Origin: Pseudovirgaria hyperparasitica
Taxonomy: Eukaryota
Direction: 5' to 3' (one strand)
Length of the DNA stretch: 64,000 nucleotides
NCBI GenBank assembly: GCA_010093815.1
Contig: ML996566.1
Within the stretch, counting starts at the first letter, position 1, and each line of letters starts with the position of its first letter. The notes under the pieces were generated by a model. That model did not search any database, was not told where the DNA came from, and saw only the letters and a program-made list of their open reading frames with translations. Shown here one piece after another: positions 3,718 through 33,181 of this stretch. The position numbers and the translations under genes were made by a program.

Positions 3718-3735
3718 ATATAAAAAGTACGTTCT

Positions 3736-3784
<49 letters not shown>

Positions 3785-10989: not shown

Positions 10990-11639
<650 letters not shown>

Positions 11640-12610
11640 AATATGATATGTCCTGTTGGACACCCTGGCATCACAGTTCAGAGGGAGGCGCTTGGAATAA
11701 TGATCTATGCCAACACTTGTACAAATCGCATGCAGCACATAACTTTTGTTTCGCATGCATGAACCGCAATGCAGCACATACTATGTAAAAACTCATTACT
11801 ACCCATCGATGTATGTGACCCCTTAATCGCTGATTGTTCTTGTATAGAGTCATACCGAGAGAAGAAGGTAGAACGCGGAGGAAGAGGTTGATGGGTTTCC
11901 GGTGCGCTCGGGACACTTGAACAGTTGAACGAGTGAATCAATGGTGGCGGATGAATTATGAATGCAGCGGTCCAGCCACGGCCCTGCAATAACAATGTTC
12001 TGAGTCTGAGCCTCAACATTTTCGACCTGACAACGTTGTTTGCAGTGGCCAAGATCTGCTCTCTAATTACTGACTATGTATCACACGCGTGCCAGTATTG
12101 TAGGTCTCCACTGTCACCTCCGGCTGCACTAACCACACTCCGGCCAAGTGCGACGGCCGCTCGTTTGTGCGTCATTGGCGTAAACTCCCGCCAGACACCA
12201 CTCACTCTGGCTATCATATTACCTTCGCAGTGTACGTTCACCTTTCCTTAGCCACTTCACTGCTATCGCATCTGTCTCTTTTACTACTTGTTCCTACTCT
12301 ACACTTTGGCGCCTGTGATTTACTATTTTTTTTCTGCGCCGTGCGTATCCTTCTTACCTTTTATCTTTATTCCGAGCGTTTGTCAGATCACCTGCATAAC
12401 GCGCATGACAAGGCAGTTTCTCGAAGCTCTCTACCTACTCCACCCACTCTACTTTGCCAACATCTTGCGAACAGTCCGGTCACGGCCTGGACAAATCTAC
12501 CACAAACTACTGACAAGCACAATCAACCGTAGTCCTTTCCAACCTCGTTCTTCCTCCTGCTTATCGCCTTCGCACCAGAATCTCCGACCGTCACACTGTC
12601 AGTACTGAAT

Positions 12611-14393
12611 ATGGACACTTCGGCCCCGGGCCAGGGCCAGAACCCGAATCAAGAGCTGTGCTTCTGCCATTCATGCGAGAACGAATGGTATCGTCACGAA
12701 TATGGACTGACATGTCCGGAATGTCAGTCTGACTTCACCGAGATAGTACGTCGAACCATTTTGCTTCCACGCTACGGCTCTCGCTTTCGCTTGAAAGATT
12801 TCTGACATGCACTCTGTAGGTTGAAGCTGCCCACGACCCGCGTGCAGAATTATTTGCAGATCTTGACCACCATATGGCGGACGAGCACCCGGCACACCCA
12901 CGTTCGCACACCCGTGATCCGATCCATGGTAACGATGACCACCACCCTTTCCACAATCAGGACACATGGCGCCACGCCCCTGATCCGGAAGAGGAGGACA
13001 TCAATGGTTGGCGAATAAACCAGACAGGTCCCGACACTTTCTCTATGACGGGCACCTTCACCACTACCACTACGCCGCGCGGAGGAGCAAACAGGGCTCC
13101 AGGTGCTCTACAGGGCGGCATCGCAGACAACTTCAGACACATGCTCCAAGGAATACTAGGAAACAACGCAGGGTTAGCCAACACACGCCCTAGCACACAG
13201 CAGCAGCCCCCTGACGCTCCTCCCGTACCTGGCCATAGACCTGATCCTTTTTCCCCACCAGATCGAAATGCACCGGGCGGGTTGGGACATCCACACCAGA
13301 ATATGCAGTCGATATTCGGTGGATTCCAACCTCAGACTACCCAGCAGAGGTTTGGCTCTGGCGGTCAAAGAGTTACTTTCATGGGTAGAGGGCCACATCC
13401 GAGGTTCCAGTACACCGCGAATGCGCGGATCTTTCCACGCAACCCAAACGAGGCACAACCTCACGTTGAGCCCGTTGACGAACTTCACGAGTAAGTCATG
13501 CATGGTAACTTTGTTCGACTTTTTTGCACTACTGACAAGTTGATAGTATGATTCAGGCTATGCTTGGTCAAGGCATGGGCGGACCACGATTCCCTGGTGA
13601 AGTCCCGCCAGGTCAACGTTTTGAACAGCAGCAAAATGCAAACGCATTCCCCGATAATCCTTTATTGGGACTATTAAGTCATTTTCTCGCCGGACCGAGA
13701 GGATCAATCGGAGACTATGTTGGTTCTCAACAGGAACTAGATCGGGTTATTTCTCAGCTTATGGAACACAACGCCTCAGGAAGTGCGCCGGGTCCGGCAT
13801 CAGCAGCAGCCATAGCGGCTCTACCGAAGAAGGAAGTATCCAAGGACATGCTAGGCTCCGAAGGCAAAGCCGAATGTAGCATATGCATGGATGAGGTCAA
13901 CTTAGGTGAACAAGTGACGATACTGCCCTGTAATCACTGGTTCCATGAACAGTGTGTCGGTGCATGGCTGAGTGAGCATGACACATGTCCCCACTGTAGG
14001 AAAGGCATTTCATCTGAGCCTTCAAGCCCGCCCCAAACGCCCGGACGCGCTACTAGTGCTGAGGCTTCACACAGTCAGCGGCTATATCCACCTTCGCCGA
14101 CCCGAAACGTTCCAGGCACATTTTACGACGATCATGCATCAACAAGCAGCTCTGATGTTCGACATGATTTCCACAGACTACACGAACATCGCCCACAAAA
14201 CAGTCGCCACTCTAGCCACGGTAGCCACAACAGCAGGAGACAGAGTGCATCTACAATCCTCAACAATAGTCACACCAGCAGTAACGACGGTGGTGGTGGT
14301 GGTGGTGGTGGTGGTGGTATAGCTGATCGAATCAGGAGAGGACTATTTGGTAGTAGCAGTTCGCGACGCCAAAGCGGCGGAGCAAACCCGTGA
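12611..14393 (+). CDS. RING-H2 E3 ubiquitin ligase with N-terminal zinc ribbon (RNF115/RNF126-like)
   Basis: N-terminal FCHSC...CPECQSDFTE zinc ribbon; C-terminal CSIC...LPCNHWFHEQCVGAWLSEHDTCPHC RING-H2; introns near 12746-12819 and 13491-13547. Confidence 0.9.
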
Positions 14394-14739
14394 TTCAAGT
14401 TCGTAGCAACAATGTAGTGAGCGTGTAGCGTGTCACGAACACATATTGACATACATTTGGTTAGGTTATATAGAGCGAGGCTATTGGCGTTGGGGCGTCA
14501 GCAGAAGCTGTATTTTTACCAGACACATCGTTACCTGGATATGCCTAACTCGTGCTAAATATCATGAATACTGATCACCACGCTAAGCTGTTTAAAGATG
14601 GATATTAGTGAAATGACTATCTATGTAGGTGAAGATTTGGACATTATAGTTCAAAATCGTAGTTTTGCAAGTAATGATACACTGCCATCCTTTTGGTGGC
14701 CACTTTCTGCGCGGCCTTTGTTCATGGCTTGTGACTCCA

Positions 14740-16159
14740 TCATATATACCTTAGCATTTTCAACGGATAGACTATAATTCCGGCGATTGCAGTAAGGCCA
14801 GAGAATACAATCAACGGGCCATACCCACTTCCATATCCACCTATGGCATGTCCACGCCACGGCGCACCCTTCACCAACGCTTCGCTCAAAGGTCCAGATA
14901 TAAGATTTCCTATTCCGCGACCTAGCAATAGGCATCCCATCAATGAGATTGGGTCTCCGGGGCCATAGCCCGCAGCCTCGCCCTTTTGCGTGACTGTCTG
15001 CATGATGCCAGAGTAGATGCTTGTATAACCACCAGCGAAGAGGCCATACAGTATCGCGAAGACGTATAGCTGAGGTAGCTTTGTCGTCAGACCCCAGATG
15101 AGGAGCACCGAGACACTAGTACCGACCGCAGAGATGAAAACGCACATAGTTGTGGAGAGCTTGTCAGACATGAAGCCCATAATCACACATCCGAGAGTGG
15201 CACAGATGTTGAGCACCATAAGCGTCAACGCAGACAAGAAGTTCGGCGCCCCGAACTGTTCGCTCGCATACGACGGGAGGTAGATGCTTGGGAGGAAGTA
15301 TCCCGTGGCGTGTAGCACATTGATAAGCCAATAACACACAAACGTGCTCGAGAAAATGTATCGGAGATTGAGCGGCTGCACCTTCGACGCCATCGACTGC
15401 GGTATCCTGGGTCGAACGAAGAATGCGAATGGAGCAGTGAGCGCGAAGGTGACACCGGCCCAGATCCGTAATGTCGTCCGAAAGCCGAGTTTGTCGAGCA
15501 TGACTTCGAGCACGAGGGGGATCACTACACCTCCGACGCCTGCGGCGCTCCATGCGATGCCGTACGCCAGCCCTTTGCGTTTGTCGAACCATTCGTCGAT
15601 GTATACGATGCAGGGCGAGTACGCGAGACAGCCGCCGACGCCGAAGAGGACGCCTTGGACGCCGATGAGCTGGTTGACGGTGTTGCATAGAGAGGCAAGG
15701 CCCAGGGACAGAGTCGCGAGGATGATTCCAAAGAGGGAGAACCAGCGGGACAAGCGAGGGAAATGGCGAAGGAGCGGCGTGACGAAAGGTGTAGCAAAGT
15801 ACAGGATACCCTGTCCTCGTCAATTGATACGAACGAATATTCTCGCAATCCAAGTAACATACCTGGGTAGTGGTTCCAATCACGGCAATGCTTCCTTGAC
15901 CTGCGAAGGGCTCATGACGGCTATAGTGGTCCTGGAAGATACCGAAGCTGAATGCGAAGCCGTATATCATGGCTTCGAAAACCCAACATGCGCTCAGGAA
16001 TAGCCATGCTTGCTTGCCGGTGTCGGCAGGCGGGATGTCTGCTTCAGTTTTTGGATGGTGGAAGAGAGAAGTACGTTCGGTGTGTTCTTCCCGCCGGCCA
16101 CTCGCATTGGGGGTTGCTCGACTTAAGCCGTCATCGAGGGTGCCAAAATTCCGAGCCAT
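14740..16159 (-). CDS. MFS transporter, monocarboxylate-porter (Mch-like) family; cluster transporter candidate
   Basis: PPADTGKQAWLFL, FSFGIFQDHY, DEWFDKRKGLAYG motifs, many hydrophobic helices; one intron near 15811-15862. Confidence 0.88.
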
Positions 16160-17372
16160 CGTCGCTGGTTCAAGCCGTGACAGGTATGATACAAGGTGGA
16201 CACGCTAAACAAGTCAAATTCGTCGTCGTGAGGTGTGTCGAAGATTTAAGGTTCGAAGAGGTAGGGACGAGGGATGCGGCGCTGAGCAGCGGCGCCGCCA
16301 AATTAGGTTCCCGTTCTTTTTTGAACCGGAGACATGATGCAATATATTGGCCTATGCGCGGATAATGTAGGATAACCCTGAACAGGATGAGTTTTGGACG
16401 TAATCATGACCTTGGAAAAGTCTTGGATTTTGCGCCCAGCGTTGTACATGTCTGTGCAACGAGAGAGCGTCGTCTCTAATGTAACCTCGTCGTCGCCCTT
16501 AGTCCGGCACTAGAGCATTCAGTTTGAATGTCTCATGTCTCATGTCTCATGCTAAGTGTTCGTCGAGTGTAGGCTAGCGTGACGATCAAGTGGAAGCTAA
16601 CGTGGCGATCGAGTGTTCGCATGTTTGCTTTTTTGACGGGGGCTCGGAGTACCTGATGAGCCTTACTATCTGACCCTTCACTTCTCGCCCCGGTGCTACA
16701 TATACGCGTCCAGCCGCATGATTACCATAGTAACAGCATAAGCCACCGCCACCACATGTGCAGAACGTGCTGATTCCAGGAGTTGGGATCAATCAACCGG
16801 ACAGATTCTACCAATACCGATAGGTCCTGTTTCAAAACAAAAGACGTGAGTGTAATATTTTCATGCAGTAGGACGACCTATCAATCTCATTCTTCGGAGT
16901 CTTATGTTGTTATGTTGTTACCAACACATCCAACAAATGTTGTTCAAGCATTGTTCATACCCGCATCTTACTTGCATCGATGGATTTCCTTGATCTGAAA
17001 CCTCTTCCTTTCCAAGATCTCAGGGGTCGGAGCGGGTGGGGGCACAATTGTTTTAACGACGGTAGACCCACTTCAGGGTCAAACCCCAGCCGCAGTCACG
17101 TTTGCCTGGACAAAGACTCTAGAAGCACACTTGAACCACGAGCCGAAGTGACGAGTCAGTTGTGTTCGGCAGCCAAGGACGTAAGGATTCATCACAACGC
17201 TACATCGACCAAAGTGGAAAGTGGTCACGTGGTGTTTATTTAAAGATCAGTCATACCTGTTCTATGGAAACCTTGGAACATTTTCGGCGAGTACTCATTG
17301 CGCTCAGACGGTTCTCAATGACTCAGCAAGTACGCGGCTACCGTCCTGTATAAGTCCTCACTTCATCATCAA

Positions 17373-18502
17373 TCAGTAATACATGATGGCTGTACGATGG
17401 GCATGGTATTGCAGCGCAGTCATCTCCTTATACTTGGACGTGGTCCCTTCCGGCACAAAGAGTGGGATCGGGCCTGCAGAAGTCGCTCGATTCGCCTTCA
17501 AAAAGAAAGCGACCGAGTAACGCTCTGGAAACACCTCACCCTTGACGTCGCTTGGAACGGTCACTTGATGTAGCCCGGCCTGCACTCTCCCATTTGTCCA
17601 TCTCTCGAGTGTATCACCCACGTTGATAAGCAGCTCGGTCTTGTCTACCAACGGCACCGGTAAGTAGCCACCCGGTACATTCTTGTCCTCGATCTCCAGC
17701 CCACCACTCGTGCCCTGTGCCAGCAACGTCAGAATGCCAAAATCTGTGTGTGGCCAGATCGGCATGAGCTTGCCGTCCGCCAGCTTGGACAGCGGTGTCT
17801 CTGGATAGTGGATCATGCGAATCTCGCTCGCATGGCCTTCGCAGCGGTCCACAAGGGCGTCTTTGGGCAACTCCATGGCTACCTCGAGTGCTCGCATCAG
17901 GTCGAGTGATAGCTGCTGCCCTTTTTCGAAGTATTTCTCCATCCACGATTGAAACCCGGGGGCTGCAGAGTTGGAGGGGTAGACGTTGGGGAACTCTGGG
18001 TCGCCGACAGGGCCCATGTCGAAGTGCTCCTGAAGGGCATCACGTGAGCCTGTGAAGTCACAGAATTTTCGTTTGATACCATACCTTCAAGTCTGTGCGG
18101 CCTACGTTGTCGACCATGTCCATACTGATGGTAGTGTCGTTGATCTCTCGCGTCCCAGGTAAGTTCAATGTGGCTGTCGATTCAGCACCAGGGTGACTCC
18201 ATCCTCGTTGAGGCTTGGGACCCTTCACATTCGCGAACTTCTCCTTTTCCTCTTTCGGTAGAGTGAACATAGAAGCGCTCTATGGCTCGTCAACATTTTC
18301 TCCACAATAAGTCTATGTTCGAGACTAGACGTACCTGCTTGAACAACATGGTCATATCCTCCTCAGTCAGGCCATGGTTGACAAGCTTGACGAAGCCGGC
18401 ATCTGTCAGGCCCTGAAGAAATTGGTTGGAAAACTCTCGCTGCTCCGACTTGGTACCATGGAATTTGGCCATGTCCAGCGTCAAAAGATCCATGTTGATC
18501 AT
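17373..18502 (-). CDS. 2-oxoglutarate/Fe(II)-dependent dioxygenase (isopenicillin N synthase-like family), 3 exons
   Basis: GFVKLVNHG N-terminal motif, PQRGWS, HTD..H iron triad (WPHTDFG, GLHQV), RYS cosubstrate motif; introns near 18281-18335 and 18031-18084. Confidence 0.92.
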
Positions 18503-18784
18503 GTTTGCGTTGTTATGTGAGAGGATGGCTCTCACGGCGTGTGGAATGGGGAAGTGGTATCAAGACCCTGTCTGTGAATATCGATCGAGGACAATGCAGT
18601 TGTGGTAACCAGGTCTCTTAAGGTATATGTAGGTACGTATATAGTGGCTCCATGAAGCGCAGGCTTCGCTGTGGCATAAAGCATGTATGCTACTCCGCTT
18701 TAGCACACCGGCCTTGCATCCGATGTTCAACAGTATGTAAGTCGGATGTCCGAGCCTTGTCGTTTGTTCATGTAGCTGGTGAGT

Positions 18785-18950
18785 TTACCCCGCACCGATA
18801 TGCACCTCTTCACAGTGCAGCCGATGGTCGTGTATTCACAGTGCAGCCGATATGCATGTATCTACAATGCAGCTTATCTGCATATATCTACAATGCAGTC
18901 GATGTACACGTATTTGCAATACAGCTGATATGCATGTATTCACAGTGCAC
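18785..18950 (+). repeat. Degenerate 26-bp minisatellite (~6 copies; consensus CACAGTGCAGCCGATATGCATGTATT)
   Basis: Units begin at 18811, 18837, 18863, 18889, 18915 and 18941 (partial), with a divergent unit at 18785. Confidence 0.85.
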
Positions 18951-19341
18951 TTCATGCTCGGAGCTAGATGCATAGGGGCCACATCAGAACAACACACTGT
19001 TCAGTCATTCGTTGCTCAACACTCTAGCAAGTTTGGTGTCATGCTTAGAATAGATCTAAAACTTATCCGAACGAGTAATACACTCTTCGCTTGGCACTCT
19101 GGCAAATTCATTGTCATACTTGGAATTGGATCTATGAGGCTTCTAAGCAAGTAAGGTTAATTGATTACTCAGTGTCAAACTACACGCCTTCAACGAGAAA
19201 AGATCATTATGAACCAGACGACTACGCTTCCGAACAAACAGAGCAAAATACTCGTCCTCTCCCAAGGTCGTACTACGTATTGGAAAAAATCAAAGACACT
19301 CTTGCTCCTGTTTCCGATCATATTACAACATTGTTTCAACA

Positions 19342-20547
19342 TCATGACTCAGGGGAGTTCGTCTTCTTGAGTACAGCCTTGAAGAACTCACAGAGTCTTT
19401 CGAAAGCTTGCTCGCTAATCTGATAGTGGAAGCAGATACGCCCATACAATGGTGCTCCTATCTTCAGTCCGAATTGACTTGACATAGGGTAGAAATCCTC
19501 ATCTCTCAGACCAGAGGCTTCAAGATCGAACCAGATTATGTTTGTTTCTGTGGGTAATTGAAGCTTTCCGCCGTGCTCTTCCCAAACAGACGAAGCATAT
19601 CTGGCCTTTTCTTGTGCGGATCTCAACAAACCACCAAGAAATACTGTTTCTATTGCTACTCTTGCTGGCGCAGCAATCACACCAGAACTCCGAGTGCTAC
19701 CACCCAGAAGCTTGCGACCCCACTTTGCACGTTTGATGAATGCAGAACTCCCGGTGACAATGCTGCCAAGTGGAGCACCGAGTCCTTTTGTAAAGCACAT
19801 CTGGATACTATCGAAACACTCTCCCATGTCACGCAGTGTGCAGGCTCCAGCAGCGACTGCTTCCCACACTCGAGCGCCGTCTAAATGCATATGAATAGGA
19901 GGCGTCTGAGCACGAGCCCATTTCGAGATGGCACGAATATCAGACAGAGGGAATATCGTCCCCCAAAGAGTATTTTCTAAGCTTATTACCCGAGTAGGAC
20001 AGTCGTATACGCTTTCGGTGATGGTGGCGTGTTTCTTGACATCGGCCAAAGTGAGATGATGGCCGTTGGATGGAACGACTTGCTTGATCATGGCGCCACA
20101 GACACTTGAAGGCCCCCCGCCTTCTAGAATGATAATGTGCCCACGATGATCGGCCAAAATTGAATGAGGCGGGCTGGTGAGAGCAGACCGGAGAGCCACT
20201 TGATTTCCCATGGTCCCTGACATGACCAGAAGAGATGCCTCATGGCCCACGAGGCCAGCAACGTATTCCTGGAACGAGTTCGTTGTTTCGTCCTCATCCA
20301 TATCGCCATCACCTAGCGTTGTAGCGCTTATAGCAGCTAGCATTGGTAATGTAGGAATGGTAACAAAGTCGGATCGGAAATCATTGGAAGATCTGTCGCT
20401 CCGTGCCCACGCAAGATGCTGGAGACACTTCATATCTTCAGTAAGCCCAGAGATCTTTGAATCATCGTTGTGAGTCTTTGATGGGACAAAACGCGTGGGA
20501 GTAGACACGTCCTGCGCCTTCTCTGGGTCAATTAAAGATGGTGCCAT
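19342..20547 (-). CDS. PLP-dependent threonine aldolase (GLY1)/fungal alanine racemase family enzyme, intronless
   Basis: NDFRSD, SGTMGNQ, ISLENT, HLDGAR and CFTKGLGAP (PLP lysine) motifs; likely start MAPSLIDP at 20547. Confidence 0.9.
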   Translation of the reverse strand: MAPSLIDPEKAQDVSTPTRFVPSKTHNDDSKISGLTEDMKCLQHLAWARSDRSSNDFRSDFVTIPTLPMLAAISATTLGDGDMDEDETTNSFQEYVAGLVGHEASLLVMSGTMGNQVALRSALTSPPHSILADHRGHIIILEGGGPSSVCGAMIKQVVPSNGHHLTLADVKKHATITESVYDCPTRVISLENTLWGTIFPLSDIRAISKWARAQTPPIHMHLDGARVWEAVAAGACTLRDMGECFDSIQMCFTKGLGAPLGSIVTGSSAFIKRAKWGRKLLGGSTRSSGVIAAPARVAIETVFLGGLLRSAQEKARYASSVWEEHGGKLQLPTETNIIWFDLEASGLRDEDFYPMSSQFGLKIGAPLYGRICFHYQISEQAFERLCEFFKAVLKKTNSPES

Positions 20548-20734
20548 AGTTTCTCGATGGTCACAAGTCTTCGAATAGAGGCAGAAGCTCGCCCTAAGAG
20601 GGACTTTGGACAAAACATGAGGATTCAGAACTCGTGAGAAGACTCGTAAACATGTAGCTGCTCTTTGGACGAATTCCTTCCATCCAGAGCAGGAGGTGAG
20701 TAAGCTGCGCAGTGTTGAGTAAGACCGGACCTGG

Positions 20735-20770
20735 TCGGAGCGGGGCCTGCTAGTGATATCGGAGCGGGGC
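20735..20770 (+). promoter_or_regulatory. Two copies of TCGGAGCGGGGC (CGG-N2-CGG) in the divergent aldolase/NRPS-PKS promoter; candidate Zn2Cys6 sites
   Basis: Exact 12-bp copies at 20735-20746 and 20759-20770; related motifs at 17027-17036 (+) and 18789-18798 (-). Function is inferred. Confidence 0.55.
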
Positions 20771-21402
20771 ATGCACAAAAAATCGGGGTGCATGTTGTGT
20801 TTTAGACACCCGTACGCATGTAGGTTATGAAGCCGTCGTATAGAGTAGTGAGAATCATGTCCGGTTACCGTAAAGGGGGATCCGTAACTTGCTTAGAACC
20901 TAATTATCTTGGCGTCAGAACATGGTGCTACGTTGGCCTCATGAACATAGTAAAATTATGCGAGGCAGTGTACGCAAATCATGTAGTGTCATTACCATTG
21001 TTGACAAGAAGATAATCAGCAGCGACTTGATCCGAACTAGGATTCATGACCAAGTCCCTGATAGGTCCAGTTGAGTACTGAACGCAAGCCACCGGCCGTC
21101 TAGAGCGATAACAAGAAAAGGGGACGTGAATCTTGACGATCAGGTACAAACGTGGTAGTATCATGTGAAGTTGCATGCAAGCATACGTGAAAACATCCCA
21201 GGTCATGTTTGAGAAAGCATTCAGGGCTCTCGGGTCTGTGCCACCAAGTCCGCCAAACGTGCGTCCGATTCAATGTTTGGAATCGGACGTCGAATCAAGT
21301 CAAAAGTATGACGAATTCCGGTTATCGAAAAAGGTCTGAATCCCAGAACGTTTTCCGTACACTCCTACCAGGCACACCAGTTGTCGCGGCGATCAAGAAA
21401 AG

Positions 21403-24400
21403 ATGAGCTTTACATCTGCTGCCCATCATGACTTCAACAACTTGACCGATGACAGTACGAAGCTCGGCCACTGCCTACCACATCTCCTTGAGCATGTTGC
21501 AGAAACATATCTCACAAATACTGCCGTCATATGTGGATCGAGAGAATTGACCTATGGAGAACTCAATCGAAGCGCAAACGTTTTAGCTGCGGTGCTAAGA
21601 AATCGAGGCATCGGTCGCGGTGACTTGGTTGGGATTGCACTGGACCGCTCACTTGATTTGGTAGTAGTGTTGATTGCTGTGTTAAAGTCTGGCGCTGCAT
21701 ATTTGCCTATCGATCCGTCGTTTCCTACGGAACGAATCCGCCATATCCTTGAGGATGCCGAACCGAAGATCGTCGTTGTCGGAGACGCAACACGAGACAT
21801 CTCACAGACATGGGGTTACGCACGCCTAGATCTCGATGAAATCAGAGAAAGCAACGAGAAACTTGATGACAAGCCATTCGATGCCGACGCAGGACTGAGC
21901 GCGGAAGATTTGGCATACGTCATCTACACTTCTGGTTCTACTGGAAAACCGAAAGGCGTGGAGATTAGCCATGGTGCTCTTTCGAATCTGTTGCTTAGCA
22001 TGAAAGAAGAGCCTGGCTGTGACGACACAGATCGACTGCTTGCCATTACGACCATCTCGTTTGACATTGCTGCCCTGGAGCTATTTGTTCCGTTGCTGAG
22101 TGGTGGAACAACAGTGTTGGCTATGACACATGAGACTAGACTTCCTGAATCGATTATGGCCCTTATACAACGGCACAGTATTACGATGATGCAAGCTACA
22201 CCTGCAACTTGGCAAATGCTTCTGGACTTTGGCTGGAAGGGGGACCCTCGTCTCAGCAAGATCCTCTGCGGTGGAGAAAAACTGAGTACCCGCTTGGCAC
22301 GACGAATGCTTCCATGTGCGGAGGTTGTGTGGAATCTTTACGGTCCAACCGAAGCGACTGGTATGAGACCTTTCTAGCCTTTCGTTTGTTTTGTCTTGCT
22401 CACAATTATAGTTTGGGCGAGCGCCTGGAAAGTGTCACCAGACGAAGATGTTGTTATTGGCCGGCCAGTATCAAACTACAAGCTATATGTGCTCGATGCC
22501 GAGCTCGCCGTAGTCCCGGCTGGCACAGATGGTGAGCTTTACATAGGAGGCGCCGGGCTGGCAAGAGGATATCGAAACAAGTCAGAGCTCACGAGAACGA
22601 AATTTATTCATAACCCTTTCCATGAAGGTCTGATGTACCGAAGTGGCGATTTAGCTCGTTATGACGACCAGTTTAGAATCACGGTGGTAGGCCGTGCGGA
22701 TGGCCAAGTCAAAATTCGCGGTCATCGAATTGAGCTGGGTGATATTGAGGCTACGCTGAGTGAGCATCCGATGATCTCGGATGTGGTCGTCGTGAGTAAA
22801 GACGAGCGACTCATCGCTTACTACATCGCAAATTCTAGTGGAAGGAATCAAACTTCAAAGCTCGACAGCATGCTTCGATCATGGTTGACGGAGCGCCTCC
22901 CTGTGTACTCAGTGCCAGCATTCTTCGTAGTATTGGATGCCTTCCCAATGACGCTCAATAATAAGGTCGACAGAAACTCGTTACCAGATCCAGCGCACGC
23001 ACTTCAGCCTGTATTCACCAGGGAGATAACGAGTGTAGAGTCAAGCGTTAGGCTCATCTGGTCGAAGGTCTTGGGCCATGATCAGATCGGCCCATCAGAC
23101 AATTTCTTTGAAGTTGGTGGGAACTCTGTACTCGTAGTACAAGTCCAGAAGGAGTTGGAGAAACATTTCGCGAGGCGTATATCCTCGGCTTTGATGTTTG
23201 AGCATTTTACTCTTGAGGCTCTGTCAACATATCTAGAGACAACCACCGCAGCAGACAGTTCGCCTACGAAGAGTAATAATCTCCAGGACTTGGAGAAACC
23301 CTGTAGAACAAACAATATTCACACCAGAAAACCCTCTCAGCGGCATCCAGATGGAGATGAAGAGGCAATTGCAGTGGTTGGAATGTCATGCCGGCTCCCA
23401 GGAAATGTTTCTACTCCCCAGCAATATTGGGACATTCTCGAGTCTGGTGCCGATGTTATCTCGGAGGTGCCGCGAGATCGATGGGACGCCGACGCAATTT
23501 ACAGTGAGGACCCTGACGCCAAAGGGAAGTCTTACTGCCGCCGAGGTGGCTTTCTATCCTCGGTCGACCATTTCGATGCGTCGTTCTTTGGCATATCGCC
23601 GAGAGAGGCAACAATGATGGACCCAGCACAGCGCATAATGCTTGAAACCAGCTGGGAAAGCTTTGAGCGGGCTGGTTATACGATTGAAAGCCTACGCGGA
23701 AGCCAAACAGGGGTCTATATAGGTACATGCAATATCTCTGCACATACGACTGCGCCGCCTGGAGAGAGACTGGACGGCTACAACGTGACGGGTACCTCAT
23801 CTGGAACCATGTCCGGACGAATCTCGTACAGTCTTGGGCTTGAAGGTCCAAGTATGACAATCGACACCGCCTGTGCCAGTTCTCTGGTCACAACGCATTT
23901 GGCTTGCAACGCACTTCGTGCTGGTGAATGCGATGTTGCATTGTCTGGCGGAATTACACTCCTCCTAAACCCTGGTATGCACATTGAGTTCAGTAGACTT
24001 CAGGGAATATCAAGAGATGGGCGGTGCAGGGCATTTGCGAAAGACTCTGGCGGGACAGGGTGGGCTGAAGGTTGCACCTGTGTCGTGTTGAAGAGATTGC
24101 GCGACGTTAAACCTGGCGAGACCGTACATGCGCTCATTAAGGGGTCTGCAGTGAACCACGCGGGCCGAAGTGCTGCCGGATTGACCGTGCCGAGTGGGTC
24201 TGCCCAACAGTCCTTGATCCGTACCGCGTTGGCTTCCTCACAACTGGCCACTGATGATATCGACTATATCGAGACCCATGGCACAGGTACGAAACTTGGA
24301 GATCCTATTGAGGGGGGGTCGCTCGCAGCGGTGTTTGGCGGACGCAGACAGCCAGAGGGGCTTGGCGTACAGTCGAAAAGCCTCCCCCTATACATCGGAT

Positions 24401-27400
24401 CGTGAGTAGAGATGTCGTACAGACCTCGACTTCCATAACTAACAGAACTAGTGTCAAAAGCCAAATAGGCCATACTCAAGCAGCAGCGGGTCTAGCCGGA
24501 CTGCTCAAAGTTGTTTTGGCATTGAAAAATGGCAGAATTCCGCGAACTTTACATGCTACAGAGCCCTCTTTAGAGATAGATTGGCAGAGTGCGAATATGG
24601 AGTTAATCCAGCAACCTAAGTCGTGGCCCGAACAGACTGGCCGACCTCGACGGGCTGGCGTAAGTGCGTTCGGCATCGGTGGAACCAATGCACACGTGAT
24701 CGTAGAGGAATGTCCTTCGACAAGAGAACCACAGTCGGACGTGGTATCAGCAACCGACTTTCCATTCCTATTATCTGCCCATTCAGAAAATACACTCATT
24801 GAACAGGCCGCAAAACTTGCACGCCACCTTGAGAGCACCAGCGACTTTGATAGTGCTCGCCTCAGCTATTCACTGGCTACCACTCGGACTCATTTTCAGC
24901 GGCGAATTGCCATTCTGGCGAAGGACAAACCCACACTAATCAAAGAACTTCGTTCTGTCTCAAATTCAGCTGTTTCCACAACTACCAGTCAAAGGCCGTG
25001 CGTAGCAATGCTCTTCGCAGGGCAGGGAAGCCAGTATCTGGGCATGGGTAGGAACCTTTACCAAGTATATCCTGTATATCGAAATGCCATGGACCAAGTC
25101 TTATCACATTTCACCTCATTAGACGAAGGTAAATCGCTAAGAGAAGTCATGGAGGCCGTCCCAGGTAGCGATGACTCTCTACTCATAGATCGTACTAGCT
25201 TCGCACAGCCAGCCCTTTTCGCGCTAGAAGTAGCTCTATGGGAGCTTTGGAAGAGCTGGGGAGTACAGACAAAGCTGGCTATTGGTCACAGTGTCGGCGA
25301 GCTTTCGGCTGCTTACTGTGCTGGCGTCTGGAATCTAGCGGATGCCTGTCGTCTCGTTGCTGCGAGAGGACGACTGATGCAGGCTGTTCCTACTCGAGGC
25401 AGTATGGTCTCTCTTGAGGCTAGTGTTACAGAGGTATCAACAGCAATCGTTGAGGCGGGTGTGGATGGCTTGGTGAGCATCGCAGGCCATAATACTCCCA
25501 CGCAGACTGTGGCTTCCGGGGATTCGGACGCCATCAAAACCTTAATTACCTACCTCAGTACGTACGACCGCACTGTGAAGATAAAGCTACTTCCGGTCTC
25601 ACACGCCTTCCACTCGCACCACATTGATAGCATACTGGGAGACTATCAAGCGGTTCTCGATACTATGCGGTTCTCTTCACCCACGATACCAATCGTGAGC
25701 ACACTGACAGGCAAGCTAGCTCAGCCAGGCCAACTCGAAAGCCCCAGCTATTGGGTAGCGCAGGCGCGTAGAGCTGTTTGTTTTGTTGAAGGAATGCAAA
25801 CACTGAGTCAGGAGGGCGCCAATATCTTCATTGAAATGGGACCGCAATCAACTCTGACCGGGATGGGAGCAGCTTGTCTTTCCTCCGACGATTCTCTTGC
25901 CTGGCTACCATCGCTAGCAAAGAGTGGCAGGTCAGTGATACAGCATACAGTTACACAACTACATGTGCGAAGAGTTTCTATATATTGGCATGAGTATTTT
26001 GGATCGTTTGGTCGCTTTCAACCCGTGGAGTTGCCAACATATGCATTTCAGCGAGACTACTTCATTCCTTTGCGGAATCAGGGGAGGGAATTCTCCAAGC
26101 AGGACAACAACGCAAACGACCGAAGGCAACAGCAACGTACTAAACATGATACAATGGTTACAGACCGCTTTGCCTTTGAAGTTTCATGGCAACAACGAAA
26201 TCAGGAGCCGATAACTCCTCAAATTGGACTAGGAGGCAAAGGCTGCTCATGGGGGTTATTATGTGGCCCTTGCATGGACGGTGAACAACCTATAATGCCC
26301 CTGAAGCTAGCGTTATCACTGATGGGTATACAACTACTACCAGTGGCGAACATTTGCGAGGCTCAAACTCTACAGATTGATGGATTATTGTGTTTTTGGA
26401 ATTCCGGAACAAACTTGCCTAAAGCTCAGGTCCCCGACCATGTTCAGAAGTTGACCTCGGCTGGACTGCTACAGCTACAGGATGCAGTCCGCCTGCAGTT
26501 TCAGCCATGGATAGTCTGGGTCACACAGAACGCAATAGGAGCTGGTGCTGAGGATGATGGAGTCTCGGGACTTGCGGCGAGCCCACTATGGGGACTCATG
26601 CGCACTGCTCGAAATGAGCATCCCGAGCTGCGTATGCGTCTAATCGATCTCGACGTAAATCCCCACGATTTTACAAATTCGATTGGGTCTACGCTGAACA
26701 GTATGCTCAATTGTAATGCAGAGCCAGAATGTGCCATGCGACAGGGAAGGATTCTCGTCCCCCGACTGCAGCGGATCGACAAGAGCTCAATAAATCTACA
26801 GCCAGATCATGAAATTACGCTTCAAGATGGAGCAGTGCTAATCACAGGTGGTCTCGGTGTTCTCGGTCGTCACGTCGCCCGGTATCTGGTGCAGGTACAT
26901 CACATTCGACATCTCATCTTGACCTCGCGTCGTGGGATGGAAGCCAATAATGCATGCGCAACAATTGAGGAATTGACTGGACTTGGCGCGCAAGTCGCCG
27001 TAGTAGCATGCGAAATGGGCGATCCAGAAAGTGTGAAGCTACTTCTGGCCAGCTTTAATGACGCTGACTGCCCTCTACGTGGTGTTATCCACGCAGCTGG
27101 CGCACAAGACAACGGCGTCTTCACAGCGCTGACACCACAGCGATGTACCACGACATTTGCACCCAAGGTTTCGGGGGCTTGGTATCTTCATGAGCTTACT
27201 CAGGCTATGCATTTAGATTTCTTTGTAATGTTTTCATCTATATCTGGGATCATGGGTATGGAGGGCCACGCAAATTACGCGGCGGCTAACACGTTCCTTG
27301 ATGCACTCGCACATCTTCGTCGTGGAAAGGGCCAACCAGCAAGTTCTATCGCCTTCGGTCCATGGACAGGGGACGGTATGGCATCCAAAATCATCGACTC

Positions 27401-29123
27401 GACACGTGTGCGTCTTATCCAATCTGGACTCAATATGCTTGCACCCGAAGATGGATTGGAACTGCTGGCCCAGGCGATATCGAAGCGGCGTACGCTGACT
27501 GTTGCTGCCGCGTTAGACCTGGATCGACTACAGAGCTATCACGAAGACCGAGGTAACATACCGGGGCTACTACGCTCATTATTGCAACAGGGAGAGAAGA
27601 AGACTGTTGACCAAAGCCGGACCTTCAGTCAAACTATAGCCCAGGCCGCTCGCCAGGAGCGACCTCACATTACACTGAGCATAGTACAAGAGACTGTTGC
27701 GAGTGCACTGGGCTTCACTCTACCATCCCAGGTTGATATGGAAGCCACTCTGCAAGACATTGGAATTGATTCGCTCACCGCAGTTCTTATTCGCAACCGA
27801 CTGGCAAAGCTAACGGGCTTGAGTTTACCTGCCAGGTTTGTATTCCAGCACCCTAATTTAAGAGCGCTCAGCAATTTTCTGCTTTCCGAGCTAGAAGAAG
27901 AAAATTCCTCTGCATCTTCGCTGGACAATTCTACACCGAATACGACCCCATCCTCGTCACAGCTATGGCTCGACGTGGAGCCAATGAAACGAGGCTGCCT
28001 TGATGCTACTTTCACGTTTGGCAGCAAAGTCTCTACACCCCCGGAAACGGTATTTTTGACGGGGGCCACTGGCTTCGTGGGCGCGTTCATACTCCACGAG
28101 TTGCTGGAGCTTGGTGTGGAGGTCCATTGCCTGGTCCGCGCTGATGATGAGGCTCAGGGACTACAACGTTTGCTCAGCACTCTGTCAAATTATAGTTTGT
28201 GGAACGACAAACACAGCTCGTTACTCCATCCTATCATTGGCGACATGGCATTACCTCTTTTTGGGCTCACTGAAGACAAGTTTGCCGAGTTAGCAGATAG
28301 TGTTGATTCGATATGTCACTCTTCAGCATATTGCAATTGGATGGCTGACATAGGAGAGTATTTCGGCCCCAACATTGTCAGTGCCCATGAGGTTCTACGG
28401 CTGGCAGCACACGGGCGCGGGAAGGCTGTGCACATGATCTCCACGATGTCTACAATACCGAAGTATCTAGGCTACGATATTAGAGAGGACGATCCAGAGT
28501 TCGGATATGCAACTTCCAAATATACCGCGGAGAGACTTATGGTAGCTGGGCGTTGGCGAGGTGCAAAAGTATCCATCTACCGCCTACCTTTCGTTTCTGC
28601 ATCGACTGCAACCGGACATTTCCGTCTTGACCAGAAGGACTTTTTACACAACCTCATTTCTGGATGTTTGGAGATGAGCATGTTCCCCGAAATTGACGCT
28701 GACTTGTCGTCTATCATACCAGTCGACTATGTCTCCAGAACTGTCGCCAGCATCATGATGAGAGATACACATCGGATTGGGCAAGACTTCAATTTCACGA
28801 ATGGCAGTGCTCTCAGTTTTAACCAGTTCTTCACTTTCATTATCGGCAATAGCCCTGGGATCGAGATTGTTCCATTTTCGACATGGCGGAGCCATGCCTT
28901 GCGAGAAGCTGCCTCAAACACGTCAAGTCTCATAGCTCGGATCGTTCCTTTGCTTGAAGATGTCACTGATGATAAGGGGGCCTCGGCTATGGTTTCCGGT
29001 CATCCAGTGATCGAGCCGATTCTAGGAGTGAACGATTTTCCGGTGCCAATGGTTACTGAAGAATCTGCATCGAGATACGCAAAGCAAATCAGAAGTTCTC
29101 GGAAGCATTTCTGTGCCTATTGA
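21403..29123 (+). CDS. Hybrid NRPS-PKS megasynthase, A-T-KS-AT-KR-ACP-R (introns 22361-22411 and 24402-24451)
   Basis: A: YTSGSTGKPKG, NLYGPTE, YRSGDL, NNKVDR. T: FFEVGGNS. KS: DTACASS, ETHGTGT, KSQIGHTQ. AT: GHSVG, HAFHS. KR: TGGLGVLG, HAAG, NYAAAN. ACP: IGIDSL. Terminal reductase: FLTGATGFVG, GYATSK. The two GT-AG introns join the three ORFs in frame. Confidence 0.95.
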
Positions 29124-30488
29124 TCATGACAGACATTGTTATATATAGATATAAAAAAGGTTCATAGACATGGACGTCCAAATCTTCAAAGATGTCGCAT
29201 AAGATCAAACTGTATGGCTTAGACCGCCTTGGTTATCGTGGTCACTTGGCACACTGAGTATTTCTTCCTTGTCATTTTTCAGCCTGTGGACATGGTGAAT
29301 TCGAAGTACACTCAGAAAATAGCATTTCTTGCTCCCTCAGGGCTCTCAGGACTCCAGTATTTGCCTCATATTCATAGCCATCTGAGCATTAAGTCGTTAG
29401 GAGCTGGGAGTATCTAATAGAGCGTTAATTAAGCCATTCATAATGCAGCATAATGTTTTGCTGATCTGTAATTGCTCATGGCCCGCAATCTCGAATACCG
29501 CTCACATTGGAGTTGATACTCTTGTTATACTTATTTTGTTTAATTTATTGACACTATCAATACTGTTGCAATCCTACCTCGCTCCAGTCATATCTGTTGG
29601 TCCTCATTGGCTACCTAGGTCAACGTATATTAGTGTATTCAGCAAGCTTCTAGGAGAGTAGAGGACAACCTAACGTTCAATTCTTAACGTGCGCGATAAT
29701 TCCAACAGTACATGAGAGTACCGCACTCTATGGATCTGTACGAGGACCTCCGTGTGCAGGAAGACTGCAGACGAGATGTAACTAACCGCTTGTAGTGAGA
29801 CATTGGTCCACGTATCAGGAGGTTACTCCGGGAGCTAGCCGCATTATTAGTGCTTCAAATTGAAGACGTTGTACAAGTCCTCCGTCCAAAGGCCAGCTTC
29901 AGAACGTGTTGCAATGGGCAGCATCCGTTCTATCTTGACCATGAAGCTTTCATGTCCGTAAACATTGGATATCCATCTATCTTCCAGTATCCACATAAAA
30001 TAAGTTCATCGGAGTGCAGTGAGCCATGAAACACTCTAGTACATAGTATTTACCGCGGACTAAACAATCATTTGCATCTCGTGGAATGTGTTCCACTCTA
30101 AGCACGCAGTAGAGCCATATGTGTGATTGAATCGCTCAGGATTAACAGAATTGGCTACATGTTAGTATGGCTCCGACAGGACAGTACGGACACAGGATAC
30201 ATAACCCCCTTGTCAGGCAGTCGCCTAGTTGCTTTGAGTCCAGCTATGAACTAAACTATGGCTTTATGCAGTAACTATTTGGCGTCATGCAGTGGTTCTT
30301 TCGCGCTATGCAGGTCCCCGCTTACACACAGTAATTAGAATTTCCCAACACTCCTAGCGTTAGTAATCCCTCAGCTGAGGAGTACTGATATGGTTATGTT
30401 AGTGCACCCGCTTTTATGATCTAGCTAGTACCACTTTCTACGAAGCTCGAGCCTAAGGAGACGAGACTATAGACCGTGATCCTCGGCG

Positions 30489-31763
30489 ATGCAATGCTCA
30501 AACCAATATACAACCACGCACAATGACCTTCGTTCAGAAGAATTTGGCCGGCGATCAGCATGTGATAGGTGTCGAAGGATGAAGACACGCTGCGAGCGAC
30601 CGCAATACGGTGACAAGACACAGCTGCAACAATGCCGCCGGTGTATACAAGCTCAAACGAACTGTATCACCACTGTCGAGTCGCAATTACTTCCAGGAAT
30701 GATGCCAGATGAGCGAACACAACGCTACAAACGTCCTCGAACACCTTCTTTTGAGTCAATAGACACCGATCATCGGAATGAGTATACTGGAGCTTTTGGA
30801 GAGCAACAGCAAGACTTTTTCCTAGATGGATTCCTTGCACGATCTATAGCTGAGAGCACACCGTATACTCAATCAAGTGGGACAAATTCTGATCAAAACA
30901 TTTTACCACCATCCCGTACGGATCTACAATGGCTCGAGTTCGGGCACGATTTCGGCCTAGAAGAAAACCCGATTCCTGATAATCTAGCATTCCTTAGCAA
31001 AGTGGTTTCTCATGAGAGTAAGGAAGGCTTAACAAATGGAGACAATCCGGAAACCGCGGTGCCAATGGTGAACACAAATGAGACCGTCTCAGCAACAGAG
31101 AATGACTGTGGAATACCCCAGTGCAACAGACTGGTTGACCTGAGATCTGAATCTGAGCTGTCAAACCAAAGCGTAACAAGAGTACTACTAGAGTTCAATC
31201 ACAAAATCTCTTCAAGTTTACAGTACGATAACAACACGTCTCGGATTCACGATTGTATGGCCACGACTTTGGGACATTCCAAGAAATTTGTCGAGTTACT
31301 GAACAGAATCGTCCCGCATGAGCAAGCTATCGATATCACGGTCACTCCTAAGGATGCAACAGGCGAACTGCCAATACGAAGTAAACAAATCGACATAGAA
31401 ATTGCATTGCAAATTCTATCCTGCCACACGAGTATGCACATCATGTACGAGAAACTGTACAAGTCTCTTGTTGATCACGACTTTCAGCTAAAAGAAGCAA
31501 CCATACTGCCAGCGCTACAACTCGAGGGCCTGCAAGCACTGAGCTCTGATATGCGTAGTCACATGCTGGTACAAATCTGTATGCTGACTTTGGCAGAGAT
31601 TCAGGCCAAGATGAATTCAATAAGACGCAGTGGGTCACTGACGCCCATAGCAGCAAGGACCTTCGAAAGTGTGCTTGGGACAGACGCAAGTGAGCCATGG
31701 CGTCCGAGGGTCGGGGTGAAATGCGTCGCGGACGAGTTCCGAGATTTGCTTAGAAAAAAATGA
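30489..31763 (+). CDS. Zn(II)2Cys6 transcription factor, probable cluster-specific regulator
   Basis: ACDRCRRMKTRCERPQYGDKTQLQQCRRCIQAQTNC six-cysteine motif; next gene after the NRPS-PKS. Confidence 0.88.
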   Translation: MQCSNQYTTTHNDLRSEEFGRRSACDRCRRMKTRCERPQYGDKTQLQQCRRCIQAQTNCITTVESQLLPGMMPDERTQRYKRPRTPSFESIDTDHRNEYTGAFGEQQQDFFLDGFLARSIAESTPYTQSSGTNSDQNILPPSRTDLQWLEFGHDFGLEENPIPDNLAFLSKVVSHESKEGLTNGDNPETAVPMVNTNETVSATENDCGIPQCNRLVDLRSESELSNQSVTRVLLEFNHKISSSLQYDNNTSRIHDCMATTLGHSKKFVELLNRIVPHEQAIDITVTPKDATGELPIRSKQIDIEIALQILSCHTSMHIMYEKLYKSLVDHDFQLKEATILPALQLEGLQALSSDMRSHMLVQICMLTLAEIQAKMNSIRRSGSLTPIAARTFESVLGTDASEPWRPRVGVKCVADEFRDLLRKK

Positions 31764-32560
31764 TTTCTTGCTCTATGAAAGCGCGTCAGATACACCGCCA
31801 GTTTTCAACATGGGTGCATATCTCATTAATGCATAACTGTGTGTTCATAAAGGCTACTACACTATCACTAGAAATTTAAACGTTGAGACCAAGAACTATA
31901 AGCGATTCAAGACCTATTCACCGTTGCTTTCTAATTTCTCCTCGGCTCTTTGAACGGCTGGACGATAACAAGCAACCTTGTAAAGGAATAGTACTGTAGA
32001 TGGATGTGACCCAATAGTTACGACAAGCGGTGTGTAGCGCCATAAGCGGCACAAGCTGACGTTTGTGTTGGCCTTGGATGACGCGTTGAAAATTTCTTGG
32101 AATGCTCGGTAAATCTTCATGTGGACAGGTCGCCCAGAAAACAGATGGAACAAAGGCATGATGATCCTGACAGATAATTAGGCAACCCATGAATGATGGC
32201 TGTTGTTTGAAGTACGCGAAGCTGGCGCCATGGATGGCCCCGCAAGCCCCTCCAACTGTCGCCCGCGGCATGGCATTGTAATGACTCATTCAGCACATAA
32301 GCGTACACTAGGTAAGATGAAGGATGAAGAGGTAACTCATGTTTAACATCAAGATTCAAAATTTCCTCCATATACGCCTTCGTCACTAAGAATTCGACAC
32401 GGTCTACCAGCGTGGAACATCCCTGTGCATTTGCGACCAATCACTATTGATCTTTCGAAGTCATCACATGAACTGAAACAAGACAAACAGTGAAGAGGAA
32501 CTCGTGGAGCAAACTTATCATAGTATGCACACAACGAGTTGGCGAGAACAGAGATAATCA

Positions 32561-33181
32561 ATGGGGATAAACATGGCGTCGCCTGGAGCCCACGACGTAA
32601 CTCGAAAACCATATACCGGGTCTTGCCACTGCGGCTTCATTAAATACGTCCTGCACGTCACACTACCTGCAGACCCGAACGTATCTGGTGCGGATTTAGA
32701 TCCCGCGATGTTCTCAAAGATCTACAGATGTAACTGCACGACATGCCACAAGATGGGCTATATGCATTGCCGGCCTGTCAGCATGACCGACGACTTTCGT
32801 CTTCTATCACCGCTCATAGACAAGCATGGTAACGCTGAAGGCCTGGGGGTATATCAATGTGGAGGCATGTATGCGTCGTGGTATTTCTGCCAGCGTTGTG
32901 GATGTAGAGCTTTCACTATCACGAAGCCAGAAGGCGGGCAGATTGTGAAGGTGAATATGGGGGAACTCATGGAGCAAGGATCGAAGGGTGAATTGAAGGA
33001 AGCATGGAAGGCGTCAGATAGCGTGAAGTATCTGAGCGTCAACGCAGTCACGATTGACGCGGGGCAAGGAGATGGGCTGAGGGAGTGGACAGAAAGGAAG
33101 TGGGTGTATTATCTGGAGCGTTTCAAGACCACGGGGCACAATATAAGCTGGGATCGACCTTTTGAAGCTGGTATGTACTGA
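32561..33181 (+). CDS. GFA/CENP-V family zinc-binding protein
   Basis: YTGSCHCG, RCNCTTCHKMG, YFCQRCG and SVNA motifs. Confidence 0.85.
   Translation: MGINMASPGAHDVTRKPYTGSCHCGFIKYVLHVTLPADPNVSGADLDPAMFSKIYRCNCTTCHKMGYMHCRPVSMTDDFRLLSPLIDKHGNAEGLGVYQCGGMYASWYFCQRCGCRAFTITKPEGGQIVKVNMGELMEQGSKGELKEAWKASDSVKYLSVNAVTIDAGQGDGLREWTERKWVYYLERFKTTGHNISWDRPFEAGMY

Follow-up and report, generated by a model that had tools for sequence, protein, structure and literature searches.

We analyzed a 64,000-nucleotide window of the genome of Pseudovirgaria hyperparasitica, a hyperparasite of rusts, in which positions 14740-31763 carry five genes: a major facilitator superfamily (MFS) transporter resembling monocarboxylate transporters (MCTs), a 2-oxoglutarate (2OG)/Fe(II) oxygenase, a pyridoxal 5'-phosphate (PLP) enzyme of the threonine aldolase family (hereafter TA), a hybrid of a nonribosomal peptide synthetase (NRPS) and a polyketide synthase (PKS), and a Zn2Cys6 transcription factor (Table 1). 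An initial annotation of the window had described these genes as contiguous and had named their families, and Pfam matches together with gene models built on open reading frames (ORFs) bear this out for all five. The evidence set out below suggests, on balance, a transcribed metabolite cluster of the NPS7/PKS24 type that would probably turn glycine and one malonate into a hydroxy-pyrroline or hydroxy-pyrrolidine, with TA most likely supplying the glycine.

The hybrid is a single polypeptide encoded by three exons, in which Pfam resolves adenylation (A), thiolation (T), ketosynthase (KS), acyltransferase (AT), ketoreductase (KR), acyl carrier protein (ACP) and terminal reductase (R) domains; this is the SwnK order, as had been proposed from the outset, and no condensation (C), dehydratase (DH) or enoylreductase (ER) domain was detected in the hybrid by Pfam. 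When scanned for diagnostic motifs, every domain had its catalytic motifs intact, including the A3 core and Lys517, and the AT domain carries HAFH, the malonyl-type motif. The largest frame of the gene is 100% identical to a protein annotated in this species as "nonribosomal peptide synthetase 7".

Table 1. Positions in the window of the five cluster genes, the domains of the hybrid and the copies of the 10-mer TCGGAGCGGG (aa, amino acids)
Feature	Position	Strand	Detail
MFS transporter gene, MCT-like, 455 aa	exons 16159..15862, 15809..14740	-	Pfam MFS_1, E = 7.7e-24
TCGGAGCGGG, third exact copy, upstream of MFS gene	17027..17036	+	
2OG/Fe(II) oxygenase gene, 339 aa	exons 18502..18335, 18279..18084, 18028..17373	-	Pfam 2OG-FeII_Oxy and DIOX_N
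TCGGAGCGGG, one-mismatch copy, upstream of oxygenase gene	18789..18798	-	
TA gene (threonine-aldolase-family PLP enzyme), 401 aa, one exon	20547..19342	-	Pfam Beta_elim_lyase (PF01212), E = 2.7e-66
Divergent TA/hybrid promoter, 855 bp	20548..21402	.	two exact TCGGAGCGGG copies, 20735-20744 and 20759-20768
NRPS-PKS hybrid gene, 2539 aa	exons 21403..22360, 22412..24401, 24452..29123	+	Pfam and contig splice joints
A domain	21490..22966, split by intron 22361-22411	+	AMP-binding, AMP-binding_C; code DILQLGLVWK
T domain, GGNS serine	23047..23236	+	PP-binding, E = 4.7e-13
KS domain, Cys-His-His	23362..24558, split by intron 24402-24451	+	ketoacyl-synt, E = 2.4e-88; Ketoacyl-synt_C
AT domain, GHSVG and HAFH	25011..25917	+	Acyl_transf_1, E = 2.7e-50
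KR domain, GGLGVLG and YAAAN	26829..27369	+	KR, E = 2.3e-60
ACP domain, DSL serine	27684..27882	+	PP-binding, E = 1.3e-10
Terminal thioester reductase (R) domain, TGATGFVG and YATSK	28056..28743	+	NAD_binding_4, E = 5.3e-49
Zn2Cys6 transcription factor gene, 424 aa	30489..31763	+	Pfam Zn_clus, E = 1.3e-4, just over the Pfam cut-off

Contigs from two public runs (X1 and X2), which come from one sample of one study with no library type on record, were compared with positions 14000-32500. They span all five genes and skip five stretches, each 50-55 bases long and bordered by GT..AG or CT..AC: the MFS gene has one of these (15810-15861, absent from contigs of both runs), and the oxygenase and hybrid genes have two each. 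The transcription factor gene lies inside a 1512-base contig (30392-31903). Because the five skipped stretches are precisely the introns required for open frames, we take the contigs for assembled transcripts, which implies that the five genes were transcribed and spliced in that one sample. The joints also bear on the gene models, as the public model of the hybrid (P0001) is 2541 aa long, with two additional residues at the exon 2/3 junction (24402-24457), and the contig joint 24401/24452 restores the canonical GSVKSQIGHT ketosynthase motif. One 10.5-kb contig (19138-29744) connects the TA and hybrid genes across the 855-bp spacer, but since the two genes are divergent this is no proof of a single transcript. 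Mean word depth on that contig was 130 (X1) and 330 (X2), and on the contig of the oxygenase gene (17331-18584) it was ~7,800 (X1) and 9,100-23,000 (X2), a measure that cannot rank genes.

The 120 best relatives of the hybrid were collected, and the 109 that exceed 2400 aa were placed in a FastTree tree; the 11 excluded were 10 shorter or partial proteins and one of different architecture (P0069). The midpoint split separates a clade of 30 that holds the window hybrid from a clade of 79 that holds all proteins named SwnK, with a support of 1.0 for the clade of 79 and of 0.79 on the opposite side of the root. The clade of 30 includes the Bipolaris NPS7/PKS24 orthologues, proteins of Xylona, Lindgomyces and Diplocarpon, and the 'SwnK-like 1' of Slafractonia, and the window hybrid is the sister of three Bipolaris sequences (the protein cluster P0009 includes a B. 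maydis protein). Over the full length it is 57-60% identical to its clade neighbours and 49-50% identical to three proteins named SwnK. From KS to R, the closest of the 120 relatives (53-56% identity) are environmental proteins and those of Xylona heveae, Lindgomyces, Bipolaris and Slafractonia ("SwnK-like protein 1"), and the proteins named SwnK rank after them at 47%. SwnK orthologues are more than 70% identical to one another (PMC5473758), and the window hybrid differs from them in clade, in identity and in its specificity code, which is not the pipecolate-type DMLQIGVTYK. Judged by sequence, the hybrid thus belongs to the ChNPS7/PKS24 ('SwnK-like2') lineage, a sister clade of SwnK, and is no SwnK orthologue.

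This lineage is not new to the literature. NPS7/PKS24 was described between 2005 and 2011 as a bacterial-type, horizontally acquired hybrid of unknown product (PMC3226686, PMC2823734), and the 'SwnK-like2' clade is likewise in print, in a paper stating that experimental support is lacking for every member and that synteny with SWN is absent (PMC7864672). The initial annotation had considered the product of the cluster not known, and this holds insofar as the literature searched, which did not extend to subscription journals, contains neither a characterised member of the clade nor a fungal cluster that combines a TA with an NRPS-PKS; the enzyme family as such, however, had already been published (PMC3226686, PMC7864672). 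With the family on record, the novelty lies elsewhere, in the glycine-type code found throughout the clade, in the constant TA and in the conserved oxygenase-TA-hybrid triad.

The partner that tells us most about the hybrid is TA, to which no role had been assigned before. It has a PF01212 profile match, aligns over 334 residues with the L-allo-threonine aldolase 3WGC (E = 1.4e-44) and conserves the PLP lysine (in KGLGAP), features that place it in the L-threonine aldolase family. The organisms that encode its nearest relatives (68-79% identity) also encode the nearest relatives of the hybrid, and the two sets of genes adjoin each other. Adjacency was read from accession or locus-tag numbers, consecutive numbers being taken to indicate neighbouring genes, and by this measure TA and hybrid directly follow one another in five species of Bipolaris (B. 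oryzae, B. sorokiniana, B. maydis in two strains, B. zeicola and B. victoriae) as well as in Xylona heveae, Lindgomyces ingoldianus, Cercophora sp., Triangularia setosa, Zopfia rhizophila and Cucurbitaria berberidis; a gap of 2-3 numbers separates them in Diplocarpon mali and D. coronariae. Altogether TA is adjacent to the hybrid or within 2-3 genes of it in all 12 named clade species checked, as against none of the one species outside the clade, and the pairing spans Dothideomycetes, Xylonomycetes, Leotiomycetes and Sordariomycetes. Contig sizes give a similar picture: a TA relative is found on a contig of equal size for 13 of 29 clade members and for 1 of 76 proteins outside the clade, both counts being lower bounds because they consider only the longest contig per protein cluster and the best 120 TA matches. 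The single case outside the clade, Purpureocillium takamizusanense, was rejected as a false match since its two genes are ~600 accessions apart.

In a midpoint-rooted tree of the 120 TA matches, the cluster-adjacent TAs fall in one main branch, alongside many whose context was not checked; the other main branch comprises 39 sequences, including an A. niger enzyme named threonine aldolase. The P. hyperparasitica genome encodes a second TA (P0196, on another contig of 1,427,680 bp) that is 58% identical to the cluster TA. P0196 lies outside the 39-sequence branch and groups with the TAs that adjoin the Zopfia and Cucurbitaria hybrids (code DILQI..), a grouping that raises the possibility of another hybrid-TA pair in P. 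hyperparasitica; the accession of P0196 falls outside the published run of SWN accessions (PMC9030584). A metagenome scan with the TA alignment kept 80 loci, mostly of bacterial type and at best 51% identical, and no hybrid-sized frame was present at the locus L001.

The oxygenase (annotated as P0241) aligns over residues 5-332 with UcsF (PDB 9ktp; E = 2.3e-61) and is 50% identical to EcdK, and its PHTD, LHQV and RYSVA motifs align to the HxD...H iron triad and the RxS 2OG site of UcsF, making it a UcsF/EcdK-type enzyme in both overall similarity and key residues. UcsF, of the UCS1025A pathway, and EcdK, of the echinocandin pathway, oxidise the terminal methyl of free Ile/Leu en route to methylprolines. 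Among the best 120 of 129 matches, close relatives (69-77% identity) are few and consist of Bipolaris proteins, one protein on a 19,751-bp contig and short unplaced fragments. In the five Bipolaris species named above, both B. maydis strains included, the oxygenase, TA and hybrid genes are consecutive and keep the order seen in the window, and the three also occur together on the 19,751-bp contig. The same 120 matches include none beside the hybrid of Xylona, Lindgomyces, Diplocarpon, Cercophora, Triangularia, Zopfia or Cucurbitaria, so the oxygenase appears to be an accessory of one sub-lineage. The initial annotation had presented the five genes as a self-contained cluster and had looked to conserved co-localisation; what is conserved is a core of TA and hybrid, in 12 of 12 species, to which the oxygenase has been added in a subset, namely the five Bipolaris species and the 19,751-bp contig.

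Regarding the remaining two genes, the best solved relatives of the transporter are the monocarboxylate transporters MCT10 and MCT8 (E ~5e-12), and a possible link to the regulator comes from intergenic DNA. The 10-mer TCGGAGCGGG has three exact copies in the 64 kb, each of them in intergenic DNA of the cluster. Allowing up to one mismatch there are seven matches, a number reached by 6 of 100 shuffles and hence not unusual; it is the placement, rather than the count, that is striking, in what was a post hoc observation. We regard the 10-mer as a candidate site for the Zn2Cys6 factor of the cluster.

These data also bear on whether there is a functional cluster at all. The five genes might be neighbours by chance, or the hybrid alone might matter, and the finding that the oxygenase is not beside most relatives of the hybrid (among the best 120 of 129 matches) would fit such a view. 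It is nevertheless very improbable in our judgment and is largely refuted by synteny: TA and hybrid are neighbours in each of the 12 named species from four classes and the 2OG-TA-hybrid order is common to the window and Bipolaris, to which can be added that contigs of one sample cover all five genes and that exact copies of TCGGAGCGGG are confined to cluster promoters.

What the hybrid might build depends on its starter unit. Ten specificity positions were placed on an alignment by means of conserved motifs, giving DILQLGLVWK for the window A domain. The pattern DI.Q.G.VWK is present in 26 of the 30 clade members, 15 of which read DILQLGMVWK; the code of the SwnK clade is DMLQIGVTYK. In a bacterial survey published in 2025, 83 of 93 glycine domains conform to a single pattern, in which positions 299, 322 and 330 alone are variable, and DILQLGMIWK is given as a glycine code (PMC12283262). 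The window code agrees with this pattern, DILQ.G..WK, at all seven fixed positions, including Trp331. The only bacterial loci that match the whole hybrid (residues ~10-2536, with 51-52% identity in the best segment) are three from Streptomyces (L081-L083), the remaining 73 bacterial loci matching only its PKS part, and the two of these full-length relatives that were checked (L081 and L082) both read DILQLGMVWK. The A domain of the family has been reported to nest among bacterial A domains (PMC2823734, PMC3226686), and this, together with the Streptomyces codes, suggests that bacterial rules fit it better than they fit most fungal NRPSs. The glycine priming proposed in the initial annotation thus finds a match in the bacterial glycine pattern (PMC12283262), and loading itself is still a prediction: going by the code, we think it likely that the A domain loads glycine.

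A pathway can be drawn up on this basis. The A domain would load glycine, KS and AT would add a single malonyl unit, by analogy with SwnK, KR would reduce the 3-keto group and the terminal reductase would release 4-amino-3-hydroxybutanal, which could cyclise to a hydroxy-1-pyrroline. By the same analogy, this might be reduced to 3-hydroxypyrrolidine or lose water to give a pyrrole. The hydroxy-pyrroline or pyrrole outcome, which had been proposed earlier and is itself predicted, has a documented parallel, as SwnK by itself converts pipecolate to 1-hydroxyindolizidine in vitro when malonyl-CoA and NADPH are supplied, and the iminium intermediate otherwise dehydrates to tetrahydroindolizine, a pyrrole-type shunt (bioRxiv 10.1101/2024.09.26.615303). 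For the iterative extension to longer amino-polyols that had been considered as well we found no evidence either way; SwnK extends once (bioRxiv 10.1101/2024.09.26.615303). Since glycine is the canonical product of TA, starter supply is its simplest role, and TA would most likely make glycine from threonine much as SwnA supplies pipecolate in SWN; less likely, it would couple the aldehyde or imine that the hybrid releases with glycine. The UcsF/EcdK-type oxygenase would then hydroxylate the product or an amino-acid intermediate, the MCT-like transporter would export the product and the Zn2Cys6 factor would activate the cluster genes. We put forward the loading of glycine, its extension by one unit, what becomes of the aldehyde and every tailoring role as proposed steps of one scheme.

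Several observations weigh against this scheme, in the first place those that concern the starter. The assignment of glycine is read from a ten-residue code, fungal A domains often disobey such specificity codes, and the code of the pipecolate-loading SwnK differs from that of the window at just 5 of 10 positions. Comparing the whole A domain with solved structures does not help: its best single-domain relatives, AB3403 (4ZXI, 205 bits) and DhbF (5U89, 209 bits), are both glycine-linked according to a review (DhbF through its module 1; PMC10510592), and the A domain of a true SwnK, used as a control, gave the same top matches (213 and 199 bits), so that this likeness does not discriminate between starters and was discarded as evidence for glycine. 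(LgrA also ranked high among the solved A domains, but only as the sum of two domains, and was set aside.) Moreover, no metabolite is linked to any clade member in the literature searched, outside subscription journals; the nearest characterised relatives of the oxygenase act on free amino acids, not pyrrolidines; and, within the 120 best of 129 matches, the oxygenase is not beside the hybrid in the seven genera listed above.

A different amino acid might accordingly be the starter, with the hybrid building a pyrrolizidine- or indolizidine-like alkaloid as SwnK does. The candidates would be a beta-hydroxy amino acid made by the aldolase or a cyclic imino acid made through the oxygenase, by a route like that to methylprolines. 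Indolizidine-like products have been proposed for the 'SwnK-like' clades (PMC7864672), the oxygenase is indeed closest to UcsF (E = 2.3e-61) and EcdK (50%), the code of SwnK departs from that of the window at only 5 of 10 positions, and the family-wide likeness to glycine A domains does not separate the starters. We nonetheless consider a non-glycine starter unlikely. The code fits the bacterial glycine pattern at 7 of 7 fixed positions, Trp331 among them (PMC12283262), and has been kept by 26 of 30 clade members as well as by the two Streptomyces relatives checked; the conserved partner, TA, canonically yields glycine; and as the oxygenase is not beside most clade members, among the best 120 of 129 matches, it cannot be the general source of a starter.

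Further points of the same kind concern TA and arise even if glycine is the starter. The need for a dedicated glycine supply seems to offer little explanation for a partner gene this constant, and nine clade-specific positions, some of them in the GDD loop, set the cluster TAs apart from the other main branch, a difference that could mean that they act on a different substrate. TA might instead form a C-C bond, an aldol or Mannich reaction joining a second glycine to the aldehyde that the hybrid releases or to the hydroxy-pyrroline; the product would be a diamino-dihydroxy acid of the 3,5-dihydroxylysine type or a (hydroxypyrrolidinyl)glycine, which the oxygenase would then modify. Such a reaction would be in keeping with the strict adjacency of TA over four fungal classes, with the single main branch occupied by the cluster TAs and its nine conserved differences, and with reports that threonine aldolases are reversible and take many aldehydes. 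It would also give the oxygenase, whose family works on free amino acids, and the transporter, which resembles MCT8 and MCT10, proteins that carry carboxylates and amino-acid derivatives, natural substrates. On the other hand, the catalytic residues of TA are all unchanged and its identity to P0196 is still 58%, which makes ordinary threonine cleavage the simplest activity. We know of no natural product of such a structure from these fungi, nor of any description, for fungi, of NRPS-PKS reductive release followed by a PLP-dependent aldol or Mannich step. A C-C-forming TA is unlikely in our view. That two glycines and one malonate are assembled through TA into a new, very polar scaffold, which oxygenation could turn into an iminosugar-like polyhydroxy-pyrrolidine, is a doubtful outcome, though one to keep in mind. 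Supply of glycine by TA, followed by a single extension, is the reading that we favour.

The surroundings of the cluster are consistent with what had been noted of them on the left, where Spc24, Fis1 (PF14853, E = 1e-24) and a RING-H2 protein form the housekeeping flank. On the right lie genes for a protein with a GFA domain, a GH43 enzyme, a MAPEG protein and a Dicer-like protein. The GFA gene, of the glutathione-dependent formaldehyde-activating type (32558-33178, + strand), directly follows the transcription factor gene; a 5.6-kb X2 contig that starts at 30441 spans the transcription factor gene, passes 32500 and may extend to the GFA gene. The Dicer-like gene (36219-40598, + strand), with helicase C, Dicer dimerisation and two RNase III domains, has the appearance of a housekeeping gene, as does a long xanthine-dehydrogenase-like frame (60095-63998, + strand) that leaves the window at its right end. 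A run of N at ~3600-3800, read as X in translations, sits inside simple GA/CT-rich repeats and resembles a low-complexity assembly gap.

Hybrids of the NPS7/PKS24 type are scattered over at least four ascomycete classes, including cereal and fruit pathogens and endophytes, and have been catalogued since 2005 without a product. The prediction offered here is a small polar C4N metabolite from glycine and malonate, a compound that routine reversed-phase metabolomics would miss, and it is backed by the glycine-type code of the clade, by the constant pairing with TA and, in one sub-lineage, by the pairing with an oxygenase whose family works on free amino acids. The sister clade makes swainsonine, which inhibits glycosidases potently, so that a hydroxylated pyrrolidine from the NPS7/PKS24 clade could share its functional class. 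Should the unlikely C-C-forming role of TA prove true, it would reveal the product of the NPS7/PKS24 enzyme, an orphan for 20 years. The P. hyperparasitica window is a good entry point to this clade, since its five genes are transcribed and spliced in data derived from culture and the fungus attacks rusts and is not a crop pathogen.

One close counterpart of the cluster is SWN (Metarhizium, Slafractonia, Alternaria sect. Undifilum): the megasynthases have the same A-T-KS-AT-KR-ACP-R order, and each is accompanied by a transporter, a PLP enzyme and a 2OG oxygenase. SwnK is documented to extend its substrate by one malonyl unit, to reduce the ketone and to release the product reductively, after which an imine forms. 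In SWN the reductases SwnN and SwnR lie beside swnK, whereas neither is present in the window cluster: a Pfam and ORF scan of 14-32 kb found no short-chain dehydrogenase/reductase (SDR) or NmrA-type reductase, the nearest SDR fragment being at 58.7 kb. The PLP enzyme of SWN is the aminotransferase SwnA and that of the window is a threonine aldolase, the same 14-32 kb containing no aminotransferase, as had been pointed out. SWN has two oxygenases beside swnK, SwnH1 and SwnH2, and the window has one, closest to UcsF and EcdK; the transporter of the window is MCT-like, and SwnT has been described as related to choline transporters (PMC5473758). Finally, a separate SWN cluster of six consecutive accessions has been tabulated for P. 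hyperparasitica (PMC9030584), with intergenic distances that do not match the window, making the window locus a paralogous cluster. The initial view that this is not a swainsonine cluster is therefore upheld, both by the missing SwnN/SwnR-type reductases and by the position of the hybrid in a sister clade of SwnK.

Individual components can be compared with other systems. The TA shares PF01212 with low-specificity L-threonine aldolases of the GLY1/LtaE type (PDB 3WGC, 4LNJ), and UcsF and EcdK, to which the oxygenase is related, belong to other cluster contexts. The Streptomyces megasynthase L082 ends in a reductase, as the window hybrid does, but its Pfam domains run formyltransferase, A (with an inserted methyltransferase), T, KS, AT, DH, ER, KR, ACP and R, and no TA was found among the scanned ORFs that neighbour it. 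L081 and L082 are each encoded as one frame of ~4,100 aa, and the surroundings of L082 include a thiolase, an MFS protein, a BTAD regulator and two hydrolases; we know of no product for either megasynthase.

Nearer to the window hybrid are the members of its own clade. The 'SwnK-like2' PKS-NRPS3 of Marssonina (Diplocarpon) coronaria has both the clade and the code in common with it; the text of the corresponding genome paper mentions neither glycine nor aldolase and proposes indolizidine-like products (PMC7864672). ChNPS7/PKS24 of Cochliobolus heterostrophus (Bipolaris maydis) comes from a different fungal order, and its gene has been described as intron-free (PMC3226686), whereas that of the window has two introns. 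It is nevertheless of the same clade, with Bipolaris proteins 53-54% identical from KS to R; its code, DILQLGMVWK, differs from that of the window at one position (Met at 322, where the window has Leu); and its locus, judged by consecutive accessions, has the same order of 2OG oxygenase, TA and hybrid.

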